Shown: positions 4,181 through 38,702 of the stretch, piece after piece
How the letters are laid out: the number at the start of each line of letters is the position of its first letter
How positions within the stretch are numbered: position 1 is the stretch's first letter
Made by a program: the position numbers and the translations under genes
The notes under the pieces: model-generated
The model's input: the letters and a program-made list of their open reading frames with translations, nothing else
What the model was told of the DNA's origin: nothing
Databases searched by the model: none
From: Escherichia phage vB_EcoA_fTuEco01
Sequence record: MZ031013.1
Strand: one strand, 5' to 3'
Length of the DNA: 44,320 nt

Positions 4181-6808
4181 ATGCAAGACCTACACGCTAT
4201 TCAACTTCAACTTGAAGAAGAAATGTTTAACGGCGGTATCCGTCGCTTTGAAGCGGACCAACAACGCCAGATTGCATCCGGTAATGAATCAGACACGGCA
4301 TGGAATCGCCGTTTATTGTCCGAGTTAATCGCGCCAATGGCTGAAGGTATTCAGGCATACAAGGAAGAGTATGAAGGTAAAAGAGGCCGTGCACCGCGTG
4401 CATTAGCTTTCATTAACTGCGTAGAAAACGAAGTGGCAGCATATATCACGATGAAAATCGTTATGGATATGCTGAATACAGACGTTACCTTACAAGCAAT
4501 CGCTATGAATGTAGCGGACCGCATCGAAGACCAAGTACGTTTTAGCAAGCTGGAAGGTCACGCAGCTAAGTACTTTGAGAAAGTGAAGAAGTCGCTTAAG
4601 GCTAGCAAGACTAAATCTTATCGTCATGCGCACAACGTAGCGGTAGTAGCTGAGAAATCTGTTGCTGACCGTGACGCGGATTTCTCCCGTTGGGAGGCAT
4701 GGCCTAAAGATACCTTGCTACAAATCGGTATGACCTTGCTAGAAATACTGGAAAATAGTGTATTCTTCAATGGTCAGCCTGTCTTTCTTCGCACCTTGCG
4801 CACTAATGGTGGCAAGCATGGCGTTTACTACTTACAGACCAGTGAACACGTAGGGGAATGGATTACAGCATTTAAAGAACATGTAGCGCAACTTAGCCCG
4901 GCTTATGCACCTTGCGTTATACCTCCGCGTCCGTGGGTTTCTCCTTTTAATGGCGGTTTTCACACTGAGAAGGTAGCAAGTCGTGTGCGTCTTGTTAAAG
5001 GCAGCCGTGAACACGTCCGCAAGCTGACCAAAAAGCAAATGCCAGCGGTTTACAAGGCTGTTAACGCTTTGCAGGCGACTAAATGGCAGGTTAACAAGGA
5101 AGTTTTACAGGTTGTTGAGGACGTAATACGGCTTGATTTAGGCTATGGCGTACCTTCCTTCAAACCACTCATCGACCGCGAGAACAAGCCAGCTAATCCG
5201 GTGCCGTTAGAGTTCCAGCACCTGCGAGGCCGTGAACTGAAAGAAATGTTAACACCGGAACAATGGCAAGCCTTCATCAACTGGAAAGGTGAATGCACCA
5301 AGCTGTATACCGCTGAGACTAAGCGCGGCAGCAAATCGGCGGCGACCGTCCGCATGGTAGGGCAGGCCCGTAAATACAGCCAATTTGACGCAATATACTT
5401 CGTGTATGCTCTGGACAGCCGCAGCCGCGTCTACGCGCAATCTAGCACGCTCTCTCCGCAATCAAACGACTTAGGCAAGGCATTGCTCCGTTTTACCGAA
5501 GGGCAGCGTCTTGATAGCGCTGAGGCGCTTAAGTGGTTTTTGGTGAACGGGGCTAATAACTGGGGTTGGGATAAGAAAACTTTTGACGTGCGCACCGCTA
5601 ACGTGCTGGATAGTGAATTTCAAGACATGTGCCGCGACATTGCAGCGGATCCGCTGACCTTCACTCAATGGGTAAATGCCGACTCCCCTTACGGCTTCCT
5701 TGCATGGTGCTTTGAATATGCGCGTTATCTGGATGCACTGGATGAAGGCACGCAAGACCAATTCATGACGCACCTCCCAGTCCATCAAGATGGTAGTTGT
5801 TCTGGTATCCAGCACTACAGTGCTATGCTACGCGATGCAGTAGGTGCGAAAGCGGTAAACCTTAAGCCCTCTGACTCACCTCAAGATATTTATGGTGCCG
5901 TTGCGCAGGTAGTAATTCAGAAGAATTATGCATACATGAATGCAGAGGATGCGGAAACCTTCACTTCTGGCAGCGTGACTTTAACAGGTGCAGAACTTCG
6001 TAGCATGGCTAGTGCGTGGGATATGATAGGAATCACTCGCGGCCTGACCAAAAAGCCTGTAATGACACTACCTTATGGCAGCACACGTCTAACCTGCCGT
6101 GAATCAGTGATTGATTATATCGTTGATTTGGAAGAAAAAGAGGCCCAACGGGCTATTGCGGAAGGGCGTACCGCCAATCCTGTACATCCTTTTGATAATG
6201 ACCGCAAAGACAGCCTGACACCTAGCGCAGCTTATAACTATATGACAGCTTTAATCTGGCCTTCTATTTCGGAAGTGGTTAAAGCTCCTATAGTGGCAAT
6301 GAAAATGATTCGTCAGCTTGCACGTTTCGCAGCTAAAAGAAACGAAGGCTTAGAATATCCCTTACCAACTGGCTTCATCTTGCAACAAAAGATAATGGCT
6401 ACCGATATGCTCCGCGTATCCACTTGCTTGATGGGTGAAATCAAGATGAGTCTCCAGATTGAAACAGATGTAGTTGATGAAACGGCAATGATGGGTGCGG
6501 CTGCTCCTAACTTCGTCCATGGTCACGATGCTAGCCACCTGATTCTGACTGTATGTGACCTAGTGGATAAAGGTATTACATCCATTGCAGTCATCCATGA
6601 TTCTTTCGGTACTCATGCAGGACGTACCGCAGACCTGCGGGATAGCTTAAGGGAAGAAATGGTTAAGATGTATCAAAACCATAATGCCCTGCAAAACCTG
6701 CTAGATGTGCACGAAGAGCGTTGGTTAGTAGACACCGGAATCCAAGTACCAGAGCAAGGAGAGTTTGACCTTAACGAAATCTTAGTTTCAGACTATTGTT
6801 TCGCATAA
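4181..6808 (+). CDS. Single-subunit DNA-directed RNA polymerase (T7 gene 1-like), 875 aa
   Basis: [22 protein letters not shown] and the C-terminal ILVSDYCFA correspond to T7 RNAP motifs ([22 protein letters not shown], ...FAFA). Size is close to SP6 RNAP. Confidence 0.95.
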
Positions 6809-6816
6809 TATTAATA

Positions 6817-6845
6817 GGCCATTCCTTAGGGAGTGGCCTTTTTCT
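6817..6845 (+). terminator. Rho-independent terminator after the RNAP gene
   Basis: ggccattcc-ttag-ggagtggcc stem (one G-U pair) followed by TTTTTCTTT. Confidence 0.65.
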
Positions 6846-6882
6846 TTACCTACTACCTGTAACATTTCATTAACATAAAAGT

Positions 6883-6898
6883 GTCTCACATGTGAGAC
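6883..6898. repeat. Conserved perfect palindrome GTCTCACATGTGAGAC, copy 1
   Basis: 16-bp perfect inverted repeat read from the sequence; it ends 2 nt before the promoter at 6901. Confidence 0.8.
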
Positions 6899-6900
6899 TT

Positions 6901-6921
6901 ATTTACCGGACACTATAGGAT
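6901..6921 (+). promoter_or_regulatory. Phage RNAP promoter (ATTTACCGGACACTATAGGAT)
   Basis: Match to the window consensus ATTTACyGGACACTATAGAAG (SP6-type). Confidence 0.75.
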
Positions 6922-6924
6922 AGC

Positions 6925-7065
6925 CGTCGGAGACGGGAAAGAAAGGGAAGATAAAGGATATAAAGGAAGTAATAGGTATTAAAGGTTATATAGGTTATCT
7001 AGGAATACCTAGGAATACCTATTACCTTCTTCCTTCCTCTTATTACCACTTAGAGGAAGGGCAGA
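6925..7065. other. Purine-rich / pyrimidine-rich AT-rich block with internal inverted repeat and tandem TAGGAATACC x2; candidate primary replication origin
   Basis: gggaaagaaagggaagataaaggatataaaggaagtaataggtatt ... aggaatacctaggaatacctattaccttcttccttcctcttattacc; the two halves are near reverse complements. The block is flanked by two phage promoters, as in the T7 primary origin downstream of gene 1. Confidence 0.45.
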
Positions 7066-7073
7066 CCTAGGTT

Positions 7074-7089
7074 GTCTCACATGTGAGAC
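7074..7089. repeat. Conserved palindrome GTCTCACATGTGAGAC, copy 2
   Basis: Perfect 16-bp palindrome, 5 nt upstream of the promoter at 7095. Confidence 0.8.
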
Positions 7090-7094
7090 TTCGT

Positions 7095-7115
7095 ATTTAC
7101 CGGACAGTATAGATA
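7095..7115 (+). promoter_or_regulatory. Phage RNAP promoter variant (ATTTACCGGACAGTATAGATA)
   Basis: Consensus match with C to G at -7 and a deviant initiating region. Confidence 0.6.
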
Positions 7116-7142
7116 AGATTAACTCACTTTGGAGATTTAACC

Positions 7143-7271
7143 ATGCGTAACTTTGAGAAGATGGCCCGTAAAGCTAACCGTTTTGACATAGAAGAAGGGC
7201 AGAAGAAAGGCAAGAAGCTGAATAAGCCTGTCCGTGACCGTACATCTAAACGCGCAGCGTGGGAGTTCTAA
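7143..7271 (+). CDS. Hypothetical small basic protein, 42 aa
   Basis: ATG at 7143, basic composition (MRNFEKMARKANRF...). Under 60 aa, so not in the track. Confidence 0.4.
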   Translation: MRNFEKMARKANRFDIEEGQKKGKKLNKPVRDRTSKRAAWEF

Positions 7272-7274
7272 GTT

Positions 7275-9263
7275 ATGGCTATTATTCAGAATGTACCGTG
7301 TCCTGCTTGCCAAAAGAACGGACATGATATTACTGGCAATCATTTAATGATCTTTGACGACGGGGCAGGATACTGTAACCGTGGTCACTTCCATGATAAC
7401 GGTAAACCTTATTACCACAAGCCAGGGGGTGGCATCGAGATAACCGAATTGCCTATTACTGGCAATATCAAATATACACCTTCTCAATTCAAAGAAATGG
7501 AGAAGGAAGGGAAGGTAAGCGACCCTAAGTTGCGCGCCATCGCACTTGGTGGTATGCGTATGAAAGACCGTTGGGAGGTTATGAATGAGCAAGAAAGGGC
7601 AGACCAAGAAGCAGAGTGGAAACTTGATGTTGAATGGTTCCTCACGCTTAAGCGTAAGAATCTTGTTTCCCGACACATTCGCGGCGACATTTGCGCATTG
7701 TATGATGTACGTGTCGGACACGATGAAGATGGTAGAGTCTCACGGCATTACTATCCACGCTTCGAGAAAGGTGAGCTAGTAGGCGCTAAGTGTCGCACAT
7801 TACCTAAAGACTTTAAGTTTGGTCATTTAGGTAAACTCTTTGGTATGCAAGATCTTTTCGGTATGAATACTTTGTCTCACGTGTTAGACAAGGGAAGACG
7901 AAAGGATTGCTTGCTTATTGTAGGTGGTGAACTTGATGCACTAGCAGCACAGCAAATGCTCCTTGATTCTGCCAAGGGTACTAAGTGGGAAGGCCAGCCT
8001 TACCATGTATGGTCTGTCAATAAAGGTGAGTCTTGCCTTGAAGAGATAGTACAGAACCGTGAACACATCGCCCAATTTAAGAAGATTATATGGGGTTTTG
8101 ATGGCGACGAGGTGGGGCAGAAGCAGAATCAGCAAGCGGCTCGCCTGTTTCCTGGCAAATCCTATATCCTTGAATACCCTTCTGGTTGCAAAGATGCTAA
8201 CAAGGCATTGATGGCTGGCAAGGCTAAAGAGTTTGTTGATGCTTGGTTTAATGCCAAGTCATCTGATGAAGTCTTTGGTAGCCAGATTAAATCTATCGCA
8301 TCTCAAAGGGATAAGCTCAAGGCTGCACGTCCAGAGCAAGGACTATCATGGCCTTGGCCTAAGCTGAACAAGGTAACGCTAGGTATTCGTAAGAACCAGC
8401 TTATCATTGTAGGTGCAGGTTCTGGTGTAGGTAAGACTGAGTTCCTCCGCGAAGTGGTTAAACATCTCATTGAAGAGCACGGTGAATCTGTAGGCATCAT
8501 TTCTACAGAAGACCCGATGGTCAAGGTGTCCCGTGCTTTTATCGGTAAGTGGATTGATAAGCGCATTGAGTTACCGCCAACCAATGACCCGAAAGAAGAC
8601 GGATACCGTGAGGTGTTCGACTACACCGAGGAAGAAGCTAACGCTGCCATTGATTATGTGGCTGATACAGGAAAGCTATTTGTGGCTGACCTAGAAGGCG
8701 ACTATTCTATGGAGAAGGTAGAGCAAACTTGCCTAGAGTTTGAGGCTATGGGCATTTCTAATATCATCATTGATAACTTAACGGGGATTAAATTAGATGA
8801 GCGTGCTTTTGGTGGGAAGGTTGGTGCACTTGATGAATGCGTCAAACGAATTGGTACTATCAAAGACCGACATGCGGTTACGATTTTCCTTGTCTCTCAC
8901 CTTACACGTCCTCCGGCAAACCGTACCCAACACGAAGAAGGTGGCGAAGTTATCCTTTCTGACTTCCGAGGCTCAGGCGCTATCGGATTCTGGGCATCTT
9001 ACGCCTTGGGGATTGAGCGTAATACAAGAGCTGAAACGCTTGATGAAAGGACTACCACGTACATCTCGTGTGTCAAAGACCGCGATCAAGGTATCTACAC
9101 TGGAACCAAGGTCATGCTTAAGGGTGACATTCAAACCGGACGTTTAATGGAACCACAAGCTAGAACAAGGTCATTTGATACAGGTGAAACAAGGCAGCAA
9201 GAGGTGCCTGATTTACCGGACACTATAGAAGAGACAACCTTTGACGATGAACAGGAGTTTTAA
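7275..9263 (+). CDS. DNA primase/helicase (T7 gene 4-like), 662 aa
   Basis: N-terminal zinc ribbon CPACQ...CNRGH; Walker A GAGSGVGKTEF; acidic C-terminus DDEQEF ending in Phe, as in T7 gp4 (...TDF). Confidence 0.95.
   Translation: MAIIQNVPCPACQKNGHDITGNHLMIFDDGAGYCNRGHFHDNGKPYYHKPGGGIEITELPITGNIKYTPSQFKEMEKEGKVSDPKLRAIALGGMRMKDRWEVMNEQERADQEAEWKLDVEWFLTLKRKNLVSRHIRGDICALYDVRVGHDEDGRVSRHYYPRFEKGELVGAKCRTLPKDFKFGHLGKLFGMQDLFGMNTLSHVLDKGRRKDCLLIVGGELDALAAQQMLLDSAKGTKWEGQPYHVWSVNKGESCLEEIVQNREHIAQFKKIIWGFDGDEVGQKQNQQAARLFPGKSYILEYPSGCKDANKALMAGKAKEFVDAWFNAKSSDEVFGSQIKSIASQRDKLKAARPEQGLSWPWPKLNKVTLGIRKNQLIIVGAGSGVGKTEFLREVVKHLIEEHGESVGIISTEDPMVKVSRAFIGKWIDKRIELPPTNDPKEDGYREVFDYTEEEANAAIDYVADTGKLFVADLEGDYSMEKVEQTCLEFEAMGISNIIIDNLTGIKLDERAFGGKVGALDECVKRIGTIKDRHAVTIFLVSHLTRPPANRTQHEEGGEVILSDFRGSGAIGFWASYALGIERNTRAETLDERTTTYISCVKDRDQGIYTGTKVMLKGDIQTGRLMEPQARTRSFDTGETRQQEVPDLPDTIEETTFDDEQEF
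9211..9231 (+). promoter_or_regulatory. Phage RNAP promoter embedded in the 3' end of the primase/helicase gene
   Basis: ATTTACCGGACACTATAGAAG is a perfect consensus; in frame it encodes LPDTIEE. Confidence 0.7.
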
Positions 9264-9437: not shown

Positions 9438-9461
9438 GCTTGTCTCACATGTGAGACAGGC
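9438..9461. repeat. Conserved palindrome (gcttGTCTCACATGTGAGACaggc), copy 3, extended stem followed by a T-rich run
   Basis: Core 9442..9457 is perfect; the flanks extend the stem to about 10 bp; followed by TCTTATT. Terminator-like. Confidence 0.7.
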
Positions 9462-10770: not shown

Positions 10771-13303
10771 TTGGAAGAAGGAGGCAAAAGGCCGTATCCT
10801 AGTAATGGATGCGGAGGCTAAAGGTCTGCTTGATGCCATCCGATATGGACACCGCGAAGATGTGCATATCATTTGCTGCATGGACTTGCTTACTACTGAG
10901 GAGTTCCTCTTCTTTGACCCATATGAGATGCGTGACCCTGAAGCAAGGGAGCGCCTGAAGGAATGGGAAGGGCATCAAGATGGTGACTTGGTTGATGGTG
11001 TTAACTTCCTGAAGCACTGTGAAGCTATCGTGTCACAGAACTTCCTAGGATATGACGGTCTTCTCTTTGAGAAAGCATTCCCTGCTATCTGGAAAGGTTT
11101 TAACTATACCGAGAGGCGAGGCAAGGGCAGACTCCGCGCTGACCTGTGTCCTGTGCGAGTCATGGACACGCTGGTGATGAGTCGCCTGTTAAACCCCGAT
11201 AGGCGCCTCCCTCCGCAAGCATACGCCAAAGGTATGGGTAACGTCGCCCCTCACTCAATTGAGGCGCACGGCATTCGTATAGGCCGTTATAAGCCGGAGA
11301 ACGAGGATTGGTCTAAACTAACTGACCACATGGTACATCGTGTACGCGAGGACGTGGCGATAGGCCGTGACCTATTCCTCTGGCTATTTAACGGAGAATG
11401 GACGGAGCACAAACGCCGTGGCGTGAATAAACGCACTGGCCTAGGTATTGAGACAGCCTTCCACATGGAGTCCATTGTGGCGCTGGAGATGAGCCGTCAG
11501 GCCGAGCGTGGATTCCGTCTGGATATAGATAAAGCATTAGCACGATGCGAGGAATTGGACGCTAAGATTGATGAGACAGTCGCAGCGTTCCGTCCGCACA
11601 TGCCTATGCGTATCAAGTCTAAACCTTTTAAACCGGAAGAAAAGAATGAAGTATGCCAACGCGCAAATGAGTATGGAGCTAGCAACAATATACCTACTGT
11701 TCTTGACCCCTCTCACTTTCTTCACGCAGAGAGACGAGGGGATCGCAAGACAGTATGGAGTGTCACTACTAAGTCTGGTGATTGGTCGGCTAGCGTCAAG
11801 AAAGACTTTCCTCACCTTAGAGGAAACCGTAATGACACGCCAAGCATCAAGTGGATTGGCGCTTACTCGCCTGTTACTTTCGAAGAAATTCCCTTGGGTA
11901 ACAGGGATACAGTTAAGCAAGTGCTCTATGATTATGGATGGAAAGGTGTTGAATTTAACGATACCGAGCAAGCGCATCTCGATGAGCATGGCGTATTACC
12001 CAAGCCTTGGAGTGGGAAGATAAATGAAAAGTCCCTTACTTTATGGCAAGAGAGAGCCGCACGTGAAGGTAAAACAGTCCCTGATTGGTGCTTGGGTATC
12101 GCTGCATGGTACATACTCGTATCCCGTCGTGGTCAGATCCTCAACCGTGGTGACGTTGAAGCCTTCGACCAGAAGGGGGTGTGGCCTTCGCAAGCTGGTA
12201 TACGAAAGTGTCGCGGCCTTGTACCTGTAGCATTTAACAAGGAGTTAGGAATCAATGCGCAGCAATACTACGAAAGGTACGGATGCTGGCCTACGTCAGA
12301 CAAGGATGACGGAGAATGGCGTGTGCCAGCTATTGCTATTAGTATTGGAACTTCTACGTTCCGTATGCGTCATCGTAACGTGGTTAATATTCCTGCCCGT
12401 GGTTTGTATCCTTTACGTGATTTATTCATAGCCGGTAAAGGTAAGCTAATCCTTGGTTGTGATGGTGCTGGTCTTGAACTACGTGTCCTGTCTCACTTCA
12501 TGAATGACCCTGAATATCAAGATATTGTACTGCATGGTGACATTCACACCCATAATCAAATGAAGGCTGGTCTTCCTAAGCGTGACATGGCGAAGACATT
12601 TATATATGCCTTCCTATATGGGTCTGGTATAGCTAACCTTGCAGCAGTATGTGGTGTTACTGAGGAAGAAATGGAGGAAGTTGTGGCAAGATTTGAGGTT
12701 GAACTACCATCTCTTGCACGTCTTCGTGAGAATGTTATCGCACAAGGTAACAAGTTTGGCTACCTACAAGCACCTGATGGTCATTGGGGTCGCATCCGTA
12801 TGTCTGGTGGTGAACTTAAAGAGCACACTATGCTTAACGTACTACTACAGATGACTGGTTCTCTGTGTATGAAATACGCATTGGTCAGAGCGTTTGCAGT
12901 GATGCGCAAGGAAGGTGTGGCCTTAGATAGCATGGGAAACCCTTGCGGTATAGCTAACGTGCACGATGAAATCCAGATGGAAGTCCCTGAAGATGAGGTC
13001 TTGTATCTCAACTACGACTTGCCTTTCACCTTAGAAGGGTTCGAAACAGAGAAGGCTGCTGTGAAAGCAGTGTTCGATGCAGAGGAGAAACGTGTTCATG
13101 TAGATTCTGAAGGACGTATGTGGTCTGCTGCAAATCTCGTTAGCGTTGATGCTGATGCTGGTGTACTTCATTGCCAGCGTCGCTATCACCGTGCAGGGCA
13201 TATCATTGCCGACGCAATGACTTGGGCGGGTCAGTATCTGAAGATGCGTTGTCCGATGGCAGGTGAGTATAAGATTGGTGCAAGTTGGAAGGAAACACAC
13301 TGA
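10757..13303 (+). CDS. DNA polymerase, family A (T7 gene 5-like), about 848 aa
   Basis: 3'-5' exonuclease motif (ILVMDAEAKG), pol motif A (DGAGLELRVLSHF), motif B (KTFIYAFLYGSG) and motif C (VHDEIQMEV). Start chosen at ATG 10757 (MKITDW); the track starts upstream at 10730. Confidence 0.93.
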   Translation: MKITDWKKEAKGRILVMDAEAKGLLDAIRYGHREDVHIICCMDLLTTEEFLFFDPYEMRDPEARERLKEWEGHQDGDLVDGVNFLKHCEAIVSQNFLGYDGLLFEKAFPAIWKGFNYTERRGKGRLRADLCPVRVMDTLVMSRLLNPDRRLPPQAYAKGMGNVAPHSIEAHGIRIGRYKPENEDWSKLTDHMVHRVREDVAIGRDLFLWLFNGEWTEHKRRGVNKRTGLGIETAFHMESIVALEMSRQAERGFRLDIDKALARCEELDAKIDETVAAFRPHMPMRIKSKPFKPEEKNEVCQRANEYGASNNIPTVLDPSHFLHAERRGDRKTVWSVTTKSGDWSASVKKDFPHLRGNRNDTPSIKWIGAYSPVTFEEIPLGNRDTVKQVLYDYGWKGVEFNDTEQAHLDEHGVLPKPWSGKINEKSLTLWQERAAREGKTVPDWCLGIAAWYILVSRRGQILNRGDVEAFDQKGVWPSQAGIRKCRGLVPVAFNKELGINAQQYYERYGCWPTSDKDDGEWRVPAIAISIGTSTFRMRHRNVVNIPARGLYPLRDLFIAGKGKLILGCDGAGLELRVLSHFMNDPEYQDIVLHGDIHTHNQMKAGLPKRDMAKTFIYAFLYGSGIANLAAVCGVTEEEMEEVVARFEVELPSLARLRENVIAQGNKFGYLQAPDGHWGRIRMSGGELKEHTMLNVLLQMTGSLCMKYALVRAFAVMRKEGVALDSMGNPCGIANVHDEIQMEVPEDEVLYLNYDLPFTLEGFETEKAAVKAVFDAEEKRVHVDSEGRMWSAANLVSVDADAGVLHCQRRYHRAGHIIADAMTWAGQYLKMRCPMAGEYKIGASWKETH

Positions 13304-13517: not shown

Positions 13518-13585
13518 GTTATACTCAAGGTCACTTACGAGTGGCCTTTATGAATAACTTATTCCTACTTATTTTGTCTAACATG

Positions 13586-13606
13586 ATTTACTGGACACTA
13601 TAGAAG
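13586..13606 (+). promoter_or_regulatory. Phage RNAP promoter (ATTTACTGGACACTATAGAAG)
   Basis: Perfect consensus. Confidence 0.8.
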
Positions 13607-13607
13607 G

Positions 13608-13672
13608 AAAGCCTAGGTAATCTAGGTTTATAAGGTAGTATAGGTAATTAAGTAAATATAGGAGATATAAAT
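13608..13672. repeat. AT-rich TAGGTWA-repeat block downstream of a promoter
   Basis: gcctaggtaatctaggtttataaggtagtataggtaattaagtaaatataggagat; similar blocks occur at 6961..7020 and 38650..38702. Confidence 0.5.
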
Positions 13673-17671: not shown

Positions 17672-18671
17672 GCTCCGCAGCTTGTACAAAGACTCCGAGG
17701 TACTTGATGCAATCGAGCAAGCTACCGACGAGAAAGGTAATGTTAACTACAATGAGATGGCACGTGTATTATCGTGTCATCCTGTGGGTAAGAAGATTAC
17801 CCGCCAGTTGGCTCGATACTGGCATGGTCAATTCAAGAAGACCAAGAAGAATGGTGATTACTACCAGACTCTTCTGCAAGAGGATAAGCGTATCAAAGAA
17901 GAGCGTAAGCTCAGGACTCCTGACCGCTATGAGGATTTGGCTATTGTACCACTGCCTGACTCGCCTCATCGAAGTGTACTGGTAATTCCTGACACTCATG
18001 CACCTTACGAGCACCCAGATACATTAGAGTTTCTGGCAGCGGTGGCAGCACGTTACCGTCCAGACACTGTAGTTCATCTTGGTGATGAGGCAGATAAACA
18101 TGCCTTATCGTTCCACGATTCAGACCCCAATCTTGATAGTGCTGGCATGGAGTTAGAGAAGGCCCGTGTCTTTATGCATAAATTACACAAGATGTTTCCT
18201 GTGATGCGCCTGTGTCATTCTAATCACGGCTCTATGCACTTCCGTAAGGCAAGCACCAAAGGTATTCCTGTACAATATCTGCGTACCTATCGTGAAGTCT
18301 TCTTCCCGCATGGGGGTGGCGACCAGTGGGATTGGCAGCATACACACGTTCTTGAGTTGCCGAATGGTGAACAGGTTGCATTTAAGCATCAACCCGCAGG
18401 CTCAGTCTTAGCAGATGCAGCGCATGAGCGCATGAACTTAGTGTGCGGTCACTTGCATGGTAAGATGTCTGTGGAGTATGCACGTAATACACATGAACAG
18501 TATTGGGCTGTGCAGGGCGGCTGTTTGATTGATGAGTCATCTCGTGCATTTGCCTATGGTCGTGAGTCCAAATACAAGCCAGCATTAGGTTGTGTGGTTA
18601 TTCTGGAGGGTGTGCCGCACATTGTCCCGATGCAGACCAATAATGACAATCGCTGGATTGGTAAAATTTAG
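17664..18671 (+). CDS. Calcineurin-like metallophosphoesterase with an N-terminal extension of about 100 aa, about 335 aa
   Basis: Motifs in order: IPDTHAP (D-x-H), HLGDEADK (G-D-x-x-D), CHSNHG (G-N-H-like), CGHLHG (G-H-x-H). TTG start at 17664 lies 6 nt after AAGGAGG; the track starts at 17631. Confidence 0.7.
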   Translation: MGKLRSLYKDSEVLDAIEQATDEKGNVNYNEMARVLSCHPVGKKITRQLARYWHGQFKKTKKNGDYYQTLLQEDKRIKEERKLRTPDRYEDLAIVPLPDSPHRSVLVIPDTHAPYEHPDTLEFLAAVAARYRPDTVVHLGDEADKHALSFHDSDPNLDSAGMELEKARVFMHKLHKMFPVMRLCHSNHGSMHFRKASTKGIPVQYLRTYREVFFPHGGGDQWDWQHTHVLELPNGEQVAFKHQPAGSVLADAAHERMNLVCGHLHGKMSVEYARNTHEQYWAVQGGCLIDESSRAFAYGRESKYKPALGCVVILEGVPHIVPMQTNNDNRWIGKI

Positions 18672-18686
18672 TTGACACTATAGAAC
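18666..18686 (+). promoter_or_regulatory. Phage RNAP promoter variant (ATTTAGTTGACACTATAGAAC)
   Basis: Consensus match with variation in the -12 to -9 region; overlaps the stop of the upstream gene. Confidence 0.65.
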
Positions 18687-18739
18687 AAGGGGTAGGTATT
18701 AGCTTGCCCTTGATTGTATAGTGAATGGAGGAATTAATT

Positions 18740-36435: not shown

Positions 36436-36718
36436 ACATGCAGCTACGGAAGACGAGGTTGGCATTCTACATGGTGCTATTACCAAAATCTTTAATAAGA
36501 AAGCACAGGCAATACTGGACACTATAGAAGAAGACCCAGATGCAGCACTGCATTTAGTCTCTGGTAAAGACATTGGAGCTATGTGTAAGTGGGTTCTTGA
36601 TAATGGTATTACCGCTACACCCGCTGCACAGCAGGAGGAGTCCAAGCTATCTAAGCGCCTCAAGGCTATCCGAGAGGCATCAAGTGGCAAGATTATTCAA
36701 TTCACTAAGGAGGATTGA
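36419..36718 (+). CDS. Putative terminase small subunit, 99 aa
   Basis: GTG start 5 nt after GGAGGAGG; lies immediately upstream of, and is translationally coupled (TGATG) to, the large terminase gene. Confidence 0.45.
   Translation: MSVHNKHAATEDEVGILHGAITKIFNKKAQAILDTIEEDPDAALHLVSGKDIGAMCKWVLDNGITATPAAQQEESKLSKRLKAIREASSGKIIQFTKED
36510..36530 (+). promoter_or_regulatory. Phage RNAP promoter embedded in the putative small terminase gene
   Basis: CAATACTGGACACTATAGAAG; in frame it encodes ILDTIEE. Confidence 0.6.
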
Positions 36719-38616
36719 TGGCTAAGGCAAGAGAATCACAAGCGGAGGCTCTTGCCAGATGGGAGATGCTACAGGAGTTACAGCAGACCTTTCCTTACAC
36801 AGCGGAAGGTTTGCTTCTCTTTGCAGACACAGTTATTCATAACTTAATTGCAGGCAACCCTCATCTGATTCGTATGCAGGCTGATATCTTGAAGTTCCTA
36901 TTCTACGGACACAAGTATCGCCTCATCGAAGCGCCTCGTGGTATCGCTAAGACAACACTATCAGCAATCTATACAGTATTCCGTATCATTCATGAACCGC
37001 ATAAGCGTATCATGGTTGTATCCCAAAACGCCAAGCGAGCAGAGGAAATCGCAGGTTGGGTAGTTAAAATCTTCCGGGGCTTAGACTTTCTTGAGTTTAT
37101 GCTGCCGGATATCTACGCTGGGGACCGTGCATCCGTTAAGGCGTTTGAGATTCATTACACCCTACGTGGTAGTGATAAGTCTCCTTCTGTATCCTGTTAC
37201 TCAATCGAAGCAGGTATGCAGGGTGCTCGTGCTGATATTATTCTAGCGGATGACGTAGAGTCGATGCAGAATGCTCGTACGGCAGCGGGCCGTGCCTTGC
37301 TTGAGGAACTGACTAAGGAGTTTGAATCTATCAACCAGTTTGGGGACATCATTTACCTTGGTACACCTCAGAACGTAAACTCTATCTATAACAACCTACC
37401 TGCTCGTGGTTACTCTGTTCGTATCTGGACTGCGCGTTACCCTTCAGTAGAGCAAGAGCAATGTTATGGCGACTTCCTTGCACCTATGATTGTTCAAGAT
37501 ATGAAGGACAACCCAGCACTTCGCTCAGGGTACGGGTTGGATGGTAATAGTGGTGCACCTTGTGCCCCTGAAATGTATGATGATGAAGTCCTGATTGAGA
37601 AGGAAATCTCTCAGGGTGCTGCTAAGTTCCAGCTTCAGTTCATGCTTAACACTCGCATGATGGATGCTGACAGATACCCATTACGCCTGAACAATCTAAT
37701 CTTCACCTCGTTTGGTACAGAGGAAGTCCCTGTGATGCCTACGTGGAGTAATGATTCCATAAACATCATTGGTGATGCACCTAAGTATGGTAACAAGCCT
37801 ACGGATTTCATGTACAGACCTGTAGCTCGCCCATACGAATGGGGTGCTGTCTCCCGCAAGATTATGTATATTGACCCTGCGGGTGGTGGTAAGAACGGAG
37901 ATGAGACGGGTGTAGCCATCGTATTCCTGCACGGCACATTCATTTATGTGTATCAGTGCTTTGGTGTACCTGGCGGATACCGAGAGTCGTCCCTGAATCG
38001 CATTGTGCAGGCCGCAAAGCAGGCGGGTGTTAAAGAGGTATTCATTGAGAAGAACTTTGGTCATGGCGCGTTTGAGGCGGTAATTAAGCCGTACTTTGAA
38101 CGAGAGTGGCCTGTAACTCTGGAAGAGGATTACGCCACCGGACAGAAAGAGTTGCGTATCATTGAGACGCTGGAGCCGCTCATGGCAGCCCATAGGCTTA
38201 TCTTCAATGCAGAGATGGTGAAGTCAGACTTTGAGTCGGTACAGCACTATCCGCTTGAACTACGCATGTCCTACAGTCTTTTCAATCAAATGTCGAACAT
38301 AACGATTGAGAAGAACAGCCTCCGGCACGATGACCGCCTAGACGCCCTGTATGGCGCTATACGGCAATTAACTTCTCAGATAGACTATGACGAGGTTACA
38401 CGGATTAATCGCCTCAGAGCGCAGGAGATGCGCGATTACATCCATGCTATGAATACACCTCATCTACGCAGGGCAATGCTATATGGAGATTACGGTACTG
38501 AGCGAAGAGTGACCAACACTTCCGTAGCGATGCAGCAGCGAGTTTACGGGCAGAACTACCGAAATAAATCGGCAAGCAGAAATACACTTTCTGCAAGGAT
38601 TTCAAGGACTTATTAA
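36718..38616 (+). CDS. Terminase large subunit (T7 gene 19-like), 632 aa
   Basis: Walker A-like APRGIAKTT, a Walker B-like hydrophobic stretch followed by DD (ADIILADDVES), and a C-terminal nuclease region; AAGGAGG RBS. Confidence 0.9.
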   Translation: MAKARESQAEALARWEMLQELQQTFPYTAEGLLLFADTVIHNLIAGNPHLIRMQADILKFLFYGHKYRLIEAPRGIAKTTLSAIYTVFRIIHEPHKRIMVVSQNAKRAEEIAGWVVKIFRGLDFLEFMLPDIYAGDRASVKAFEIHYTLRGSDKSPSVSCYSIEAGMQGARADIILADDVESMQNARTAAGRALLEELTKEFESINQFGDIIYLGTPQNVNSIYNNLPARGYSVRIWTARYPSVEQEQCYGDFLAPMIVQDMKDNPALRSGYGLDGNSGAPCAPEMYDDEVLIEKEISQGAAKFQLQFMLNTRMMDADRYPLRLNNLIFTSFGTEEVPVMPTWSNDSINIIGDAPKYGNKPTDFMYRPVARPYEWGAVSRKIMYIDPAGGGKNGDETGVAIVFLHGTFIYVYQCFGVPGGYRESSLNRIVQAAKQAGVKEVFIEKNFGHGAFEAVIKPYFEREWPVTLEEDYATGQKELRIIETLEPLMAAHRLIFNAEMVKSDFESVQHYPLELRMSYSLFNQMSNITIEKNSLRHDDRLDALYGAIRQLTSQIDYDEVTRINRLRAQEMRDYIHAMNTPHLRRAMLYGDYGTERRVTNTSVAMQQRVYGQNYRNKSASRNTLSARISRTY

Positions 38617-38636
38617 TTACTGGACACTATAGAAGG
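38614..38636 (+). promoter_or_regulatory. Phage RNAP promoter (AATTACTGGACACTATAGAAGG)
   Basis: Consensus match overlapping the terminase stop. Confidence 0.75.
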
Positions 38637-38649
38637 AAGGCCCAGATAA

Positions 38650-38702
38650 TAAGAGAAAATAATAGGTAATATATAGGTTAACCTAGGTTATATAGGTATG
38701 CC
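38650..38702. repeat. AT-rich TAGGTWA-repeat block downstream of a promoter
   Basis: aataggtaatatataggttaacctaggttatataggtatgcc; the same motif family as at 6961..7020 and 13608..13672. Confidence 0.5.

Follow-up and report, generated by a model that had tools for sequence, protein, structure and literature searches.

The spacer between the RNA polymerase gene and the gp1.1 homologue of Escherichia phage vB_EcoA_fTuEco01 (record MZ031013.1) raises the question of whether phages of the SP6/K1E type carry a replication origin at the place where T7 has its primary one. SP6 RNA polymerase comes from these phages, which are also employed in phage therapy against K1 E. coli, and to our knowledge no replication origin has been experimentally mapped in any of them. 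The window analyzed was the complete genome of 44,320 bp, a Vectrevirus of the K1E/K1-5-like kind within the SP6 supergroup (Autographiviridae: Molineuxvirinae), and coordinates are those of this genome unless another phage or contig is named. An earlier sequence-only reading had proposed the spacer as primary origin by analogy with T7. We attribute to the locus the role of a gene 1/gene 1.1 intergenic control region of the SP6/K1E type that most likely doubles as a T7-type transcription-activated origin, an assignment held with medium confidence. That it acts as a replication origin at all has, in our estimate, even chances; that it is the primary origin is doubtful. The origin proposal thus stood as far as position and melting signature match those of T7, whereas the primary status did not, since the promoters at 13585 and 38614 share the signature. 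Because these two other promoters carry it, the locus is a good candidate, yet an unproven one and not unique.

From the RNA polymerase gene to the gp1.1 homologue, the order of elements is terminator, palindrome, promoter P1, a 176-nt non-coding block, palindrome and promoter P2. All the elements named in the sequence-only reading were present, some of them displaced by 1 to 2 nt. The two promoters could be placed at 6900-6918 (P1, + strand, +1 at G6918) and 7094-7112 (P2, + strand, +1 at G7112), where they match a phage promoter consensus found in nine copies in the genome against 0 expected by chance. They are the first phage promoters in the genome and have the two lowest scores of the nine, P2 with its non-consensus CAGTATAG being the weakest. 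The open reading frame (ORF) downstream of them (7143-7271, + strand, 42 aa) encodes a homologue of gp1.1 with 54% identity to the T7 protein and is annotated as gp1.1-like in relatives. It anchors the positional homology and makes the spacer the counterpart in position of the one between T7 genes 1 and 1.1, which holds phi1.1A (5848) and phi1.1B (5923). Located at 15.6% of the genome length, the locus has a promoter for the phage's own polymerase, an easily melted AT-rich segment downstream of it and the position between the RNA polymerase gene and gene 1.1, all three being features of a T7-type origin.

Duplex stability and phased arrays at three promoters

Duplex stability was scanned in 100-bp windows with nearest-neighbor energies (SantaLucia values). 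The three least stable windows of the genome started, in order of rank, at 13598, 6952 and 38599, and they begin within a few tens of bases downstream of start sites, those of the promoters at 13585, 6900 and 38614. In the T7 control, the same scan returned 383, 18558, 5905 and 39250 as the top four windows, corresponding to phiOL, phi6.5, phi1.1B and phiOR, and the other twelve T7 promoters were nowhere near them. We take phiOL to be a T7 origin as well. T7 origins require a phage promoter, and phi1.1A/B (primary), phi6.5 and phiOR are cited as origins (PMC8373140). In SP6, the blocks homologous to ours ranked 1st, 4th and 5th. Because the criterion of a weak duplex after a promoter works on T7, we consider that the genome has three origin-like modules.

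The same three promoters stand out by their repeats. Arrays of at least four phased [A/T]AGG[T/A] units occur exactly three times in the genome, all on the + strand and all after promoters, while none of 200 Markov-simulated genomes went above three phased units; SP6 carries the same arrays after its three equivalent promoters. Behind P1, seven units (6954-7016, + strand) follow each other with a period of 9-10 nt and make the non-template strand purine-rich. This TAGGTA-type array (approximately 9.5 bp per unit), followed by its pyrimidine complement, is the dominant repeat of the block and was missing from the sequence-only reading. The first sister module (13521-13647, + strand) consists of an R1.1-like hairpin at 13521-13553, a promoter at 13585-13603 and a five-unit array at 13604-13647, and it holds the least stable window. 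The second (38614-38699, + strand) has its promoter after the terminase large subunit gene and a four-unit array at 38663-38699, and corresponds to the third least stable window; in the middle of its block there is also a hairpin, GGGTGTAC-TCCT-GTACACCC, and the tail of the block is rich in pyrimidines. A long inverted repeat is found in the P1 block only. Since the arrays at 13585 and 38614 are without one, the array and the weak duplex, and not the hairpin, are the property common to the three modules. For the genes downstream of the three arrays, PHROGs returned no function.

The hairpin ahead of the 13585 promoter (ACTCAAGGTCACTTACGAGTGGCCTTTATGA) is a near-copy of T7 R1.1, with an alignment score of 41 compared to at most 28 in shuffled genomes. 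It folds as stem, internal loop and stem like R1.1, has the features of an R1.1 site, and is present as an identical copy in SP6 at 12233-12262. On these alignments, SP6-type phages appear to have T7-type RNase III sites. R1.1 itself reportedly lies between phi1.1A and phi1.1B (Dunn and Studier 1983). Cleavage products of 47 and 13 nt agree with this position (PMC4858673). Being preceded by such a near-copy of an RNase III hairpin, the 13585 promoter is at least as good an origin candidate as P1. Nothing singles out the 6900 locus as primary, because the signature of promoter plus phased array is also found at 13585 and 38614, and the sequence cannot tell which of the three modules fires first.

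An index of RNA:DNA hybrid versus duplex stability was calculated with Sugimoto hybrid values. The 60-80 nt after P1 contained the most hybrid-favoring windows of the genome, and among the nine promoters the three array promoters ranked 1st to 3rd, with a similar result in SP6. As a validated origin marker the index was rejected, its T7 control having failed except for phiOR, and it was kept for inferential support only.

The analogy with T7 could thus be narrowed, by a simple melting-stability criterion, to three precise and testable candidates at 6.95 kb, 13.6 kb and 38.65 kb. An origin near the 6900 locus is what a specialist would expect; it is the prediction of three modules together with the T7 calibration that makes the question directly testable. 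If it is true, the rule of phage promoter plus weakest duplex would hold across the T7 supergroup, and minimal origins for SP6-based orthogonal replication systems would follow. Not shared with T7 are the arrays of phased repeats, the long inverted repeat and the apparently co-evolving palindromes.

Proposed initiation and comparison with known origins

The hairpin terminator ends early transcription by the host polymerase, and P1 fires into the non-coding, easily melted block of phased TAGGTA-type units of about 9.5 bp. In the mechanism that we propose, the weak duplex and the purine-rich RNA would favor an R-loop, in which the P1 transcript stays hybridized to the pyrimidine template strand. 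Phage DNA polymerase would then extend the 3' end of this transcript rightward, and the primase-helicase would load on the displaced purine strand, which could fold back on its own pyrimidine complement and so hold the bubble open. The gp1.1 homologue, the primase-helicase and later genes would then be transcribed anew from P2. The arrays would grow and shrink through slippage of units of about 10 bp, and the promoters at 13585 and 38614, with the same array, would serve as sister origins. T7 ori plasmids needed the loss of RNase HI, which their authors take as suggesting an R-loop mechanism (PMC8373140). No ORF of at least 20 aa was found on the + strand between P1 and P2, so that P1 expresses nothing beyond what P2 does. 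The SP6 primase reportedly uses 5'-GCA-3' (Tseng et al. 2000); GCA is found at 7061-7063, kept in the K1E and SP6 clades and lost in L046, L058 and the Klebsiella phages, and as a trinucleotide it has no statistical weight.

Compared to the primary origin of T7, the locus has the RNA polymerase gene upstream and a gp1.1 homologue downstream at a map position of about 15%, two tandem weak rightward phage promoters with hairpin-forming sequence between them, a promoter with one of the genome's least stable duplex segments behind it, and a diverged R1.1-like hairpin (6816-6843). The differences are several. The weak-duplex block lies between the promoters here, whereas in T7 it follows both; the seven phased units of about 9.5 bp and their inverted complement are absent from T7; and a 16-nt palindrome found genome-wide precedes each promoter. 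The R1.1-like hairpin at 6816 lies upstream of P1 and is followed by a T-run, and therefore reads as an early terminator, whereas the T7 early terminator TE is located 1.7 kb further on. Finally, origin activity is proven in T7, while the present locus is a candidate.

With phiOR, phi6.5 and phiOL the modules share a phage promoter followed by an unusually unstable duplex. The 38614 module resembles phiOR also in position, since it directly follows the terminase large subunit gene and phiOR lies approximately 100 bp after it. Unlike the T7 secondary origins, however, the modules have a recognizable repeat unit in common, and the 13585 module is without a positional counterpart in T7. When the block is set beside the R1.1-type RNase III sites of T7, its long hairpin has the length of an RNase III substrate, but it shows no sequence similarity to them and forms a near-perfect, repeat-derived stem instead of stem, internal loop and stem; the true R1.1 homologue is at 13521-13553. 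A search of the block (6919-7070) for the T7 R1.1 core (GAGUGGCCUUUAUGA) with stem, internal loop and stem gave no match. The identification of the block with R1.1 was rejected once R1.1-like sequences had been located at 13521 and, more diverged, at 6816.

Iteron-type plasmid and phage origins, too, have tandem direct repeats beside an AT-rich, easily melted segment. Their units, however, measure 17-22 bp, compared to the degenerate 9-10 bp found here, and the present arrays are strand-specific and tied to phage promoters. No Rep-type initiator was identified, the neighbors being RNA polymerase, the gp1.1 homologue and the primase-helicase, which places the locus outside the iteron type.

Structure of the block and rival explanations

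The sequence-only reading had described the block as purine-rich in its first half and pyrimidine-rich in its second. This was borne out by a purine content of 73% at 6919-7003 and 22% at 7014-7050, the genome mean being 53%, and no 80-nt window of the genome is richer in purines than the one starting at 6915. The AT-richness that had been claimed proved to be moderate and not extreme, with 61% at 6919-7070 and 69% at 6940-7030 against 55% in the genome. Near-reverse-complement halves were indeed present in the form of an inverted repeat (6963-7031) with arms of 18 nt at 6963-6980 and 7014-7031 that are 89% complementary; it could form an RNA hairpin or a DNA cruciform. The tandem TAGGAATACC x2 was located at 7000-7019 (+ strand), at the tip of this long hairpin. 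The second 10-bp copy is restricted to the sub-lineage of this phage and missing in K1E AM084415, ACG-C91, VEc3 and others, a distribution by which the TAGGAATACC duplication is best read as a recent sub-lineage event. Turnover of units was also seen in PSK8, which has one unit more, and in K44PH129C1, with an expansion of AT, while the AGG core is spaced by 9-10 nt in every lineage. The periodicity of about 10 bp probably reflects growth by slippage.

Three hairpins can be drawn in the P1 transcript. The 5' hairpin, CCGTC-GGA-GACGG (6924-6936, + strand), has G-C as its third pair here, A-U in CrRp3 and mutPK1A2, and U-A in VLCpiA2b, a pattern that we regard as true covariation. The long hairpin was more stable than shuffles preserving arm composition in 13 of 13 lineages (z from -2.2 to -6.5). 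A short hairpin, CCTTCCTCT ... AGAGGAAGG (7032-7060, + strand), has equivalents of other sequence in SP6, L046, VLCpiA2b and Era103 and is present in all clades. RNAalifold found no consensus structure in a MAFFT alignment across clades, since the pairing register of the repeat-built arms changes from clade to clade. For the long hairpin, covariation could thus not be demonstrated formally, and arm-preserving shuffles were used in its place. Within Vectrevirus the stem polymorphism was uninformative, the stems being near-invariant with 6 wobble-keeping versus 6 breaking events. A search of the whole genome with the covariance models of Rfam 15 gave no hit at the gathering threshold, and only sub-threshold matches to generic hairpins in 6700-7300. 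The three hairpins fit a stable leader or a processing site, and are compatible with an origin.

This leads to a purely transcriptional or RNA-level explanation, in which P1 and P2 are the first middle promoters, used for transcription takeover and genome entry after the early terminator, and the block is a structured 5' leader with no special role in replication, perhaps a substrate of RNase III, through which the message for the gp1.1 homologue, primase-helicase and later genes is stabilized or processed. We consider it somewhat unlikely. T7, too, has an RNA hairpin, R1.1, between phi1.1A and phi1.1B. The covariation at one pair of the 5' hairpin and the persistence of the long hairpin in all 13 lineages, although the sequences are about 69% identical or unalignable, speak for a function in RNA, as does the better folding of the + strand in 10 of 13 lineages; by eye, several further promoters of the genome also have 5' hairpins in their leaders. 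The stem of approximately 17-20 bp is near the requirement of RNase III (PMC1540722). Folded as DNA, however, the hairpin is equally good on either strand, the Vectrevirus stem hardly varies, with wobble-keeping and breaking events balanced, cross-clade alignment yields no consensus structure, and the genuine T7-type RNase III motif lies outside the block, at 13521 and, diverged, at 6816. A leader also leaves unexplained why the same arrays, without the long hairpin, follow two other promoters and why the three array loci are the weakest duplexes of the genome. Moreover, it is compatible with an origin role and does not exclude one.

More weight could instead be given to the regularity of the repeats. 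If the TAGGTA units, phased at about one helical turn, and the palindromes were putative sites for a phage or host DNA-binding protein that switches P1/P2 or acts as initiator, the spacing of the AGG core by 9-10 nt in every lineage would be accounted for, and so would the concerted evolution of the palindromes (GTCTCACATGTGAGAC here, GTCYAACRTGTTGGAC in SP6), which is expected for a co-evolving sequence-specific factor, and the location of three palindromes at 1-14 bp before promoters. A candidate for the binding protein was not found, however, slippage of 10-bp units can also explain the periodicity, the Proteus phage and VLCpiA2b are without the second palindrome, and the copies at 9442, 10616 and 31914 look like RNA hairpins with G-U pairs and U-rich tails; this explanation is very unlikely. 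Quite improbable, too, is a wider version, in which phased arrays and concerted palindromes would be the recognition elements of a replication and transcription control system absent from T7, with a putative phage-encoded dimeric factor binding the palindromes by P1/P2 and the arrays, as loading sites of an iteron-like kind, defining three origins throughout the Molineuxvirinae. It is unlikely, if less so, that the primary origin lies elsewhere, in the 13585 module after the DNA polymerase gene or inside that gene, the 6900 locus being at most secondary. The block at 13585 is the least stable 100-bp duplex here and in SP6, and with the R1.1 near-copy upstream of it the elements stand in the order known from T7 (R1.1, promoter, AT-rich segment). 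A detrended keto-skew minimum at 11850 falls inside the DNA polymerase gene, and PMC4837284 cites Dobbins 2004 for a skew-based suggestion of an SP6 origin at gene 14, the DNA polymerase gene. Skew in these genomes is monotonic, however, and dominated by one-directional transcription, the detrended GC-skew minimum at 7493 is near the 6900 locus, and it is to this locus that the flanking-gene homology to the T7 primary origin belongs.

Several points weigh against the reading of the 6900 locus as a T7-type origin. Its signature is common to three loci, of which 13585 is the least stable in this genome and in SP6 and has the R1.1-like hairpin upstream. A pure unwinding element would have no need of a GG conserved at every 9-10 bp, and a 5' hairpin that covaries together with a long hairpin kept in every lineage are traits of a stable RNA or mRNA leader and not of a short primer. 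In T7 the AT-rich segment comes after both promoters, but here the weak-duplex block separates them. Since the hybrid index marked only phiOR among the T7 origins, the R-loop is a step that we infer. Cumulative skews had no origin-like inflection at the locus: the GC, AT, purine and keto skews were all monotonic, with weak detrended minima only (7493 for GC, 11850 for keto), for which reason skew decides nothing. Origin mapping for SP6-type phages was not found in the literature searched, which did not include two primary genome papers.

Palindromes, terminator and relatives

Two perfect copies of the palindrome GTCTCACATGTGAGAC flank the block as had been proposed, one beside P1 (6883-6898), where SP6 has its own version at the same place, and one beside P2 (7074-7089). 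The palindrome is, however, an element of the whole genome and not one peculiar to this locus. At up to 3 mismatches, 8 copies were found compared to 0.21 expected, starting at 588, 6883, 7074, 7874, 9442, 10616, 15470 and 31914. SP6 has copies at 493, 6093, 6264, 7071, 8547, 9383, 14255, 17752 and 30569. At equivalent positions all eight copies here are of the GTCTCACATGTGAGAC type and all nine in SP6 of the GTCYAACRTGTTGGAC type, and one of the equivalent copies lies within the coding sequence of the primase-helicase. Change in concert of this kind points to a co-evolving sequence-specific factor or to gene conversion between the copies. Promoters follow three of the copies at a distance of 1-14 bp. 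At 9442, 10616 and 31914 the stems are extended, contain G-U pairs and carry U-rich tails, and so suggest RNA hairpins. The second palindrome is absent from the Proteus phage and VLCpiA2b. No description of the palindrome sequences or of the phased arrays was found in the literature searched, from which the two primary SP6/K1-5 genome papers were missing. The copy at 588 belongs to the left-end non-coding region (569-700 and 852-990), which contains two of the most AT-rich and least stable segments of the genome; unlike T7 phiOL, this region has no phage promoter reaching 12 bits.

The RNA polymerase gene (4181-6808) is followed by the hairpin and T-run (6816-6845, + strand) that had been read as a terminator. 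A stem of 10 pairs, 6 of them G-C, at 6816-6839 and the T-rich TTTTTCTTT after it give the sequence GGCCATTCC-TTAG-GGAGTGGCC-TTTTT the makeup of an intrinsic terminator, which we attribute to early transcription by host RNA polymerase and which was found in all relatives. The hairpin is a diverged relative of the upper stem of T7 R1.1 (GGAGTGGCCTTTTT), and the features of an R1.1 site are partly present at 6831-6843. The spacer behind it (TTACCTACTACCTGTAACATTTCATTAACA..., 6846-6882, + strand) is almost unchanged from Vectrevirus through SP6 and the Klebsiella phages. On the far side of P2, the gp1.1 homologue is followed by the primase-helicase gene (7275-9263).

The 601 bases around the module match 76 phage records, with 98.7% identity to Vectrevirus T145P2 and 98.5% to a K1E isolate. 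Among Vectrevirus genomes the intergenic region is conserved as much as the flanking coding sequence, and the layout is conserved across at least five lineages of Molineuxvirinae, while nucleotide identity drops to about 69% or becomes undetectable. SP6, SP6-like Salmonella phages, Klebsiella Molineuxvirinae and a Proteus phage all have the same order of terminator, spacer, palindrome, P1, 5' hairpin, purine array, pyrimidine arm, short hairpin, palindrome (not in all), P2 and gp1.1-like gene. VLCpiA2b shares the layout from terminator to P2, its record being without a gp1.1-like gene after P2, and the Erwinia phage Era103 has the module with a single intact promoter. A metagenome scan yielded only three usable homologues.

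P2 is off consensus in every clade, reading CAGTATAG in this genome as in the Proteus phage but CACTATTG in the clades of SP6 and the Klebsiella phages. In the metagenomic relative L058 (an IMG/VR contig), P1 and P2 both have the same altered specificity region (TGTGTTGC and TATTGTGTTGCACTATAG), as expected of real promoters that track their polymerase; an altered promoter recognition of the L058 RNA polymerase would be implied. At least one intact promoter always remains in the spacer, also in UAB_Phi78, where P1 is altered to CACTCTAG (approximately 6280-6300), and in Era103, where the first promoter copy is truncated and two palindromes are retained (1551-1580). The SP6-like metagenome contig L170 has three spacer promoters, the extra consensus one being located between the pyrimidine arm and the second palindrome. 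Elsewhere in the present genome, weaker promoter-like sites at 36509-36532 (26.5 bits) and 18665-18688 (21.6 bits), compared to 31.6-40.3 bits for the nine consensus promoters, could be further, minor phage promoters.

In ULINTec4 (180-405), the T-run after the terminator hairpin is swollen to about 220 nearly pure T, across which one annotator called an ORF, while the metagenome contig L066 has 14 T at the same place. The expansion is probably a homopolymer assembly artefact or a hypervariable tract, and an insertion of about 220 bp disrupting the ULINTec4 module was rejected in favor of this poly-T run at the terminator. In VEc3 (1429-1845), an HNH homing endonuclease gene lies between the P2 leader and the gp1.1-like gene and leaves the promoter module intact, and at this position the unannotated record of PhiNW-E1 shows about 420 bp of inserted sequence.

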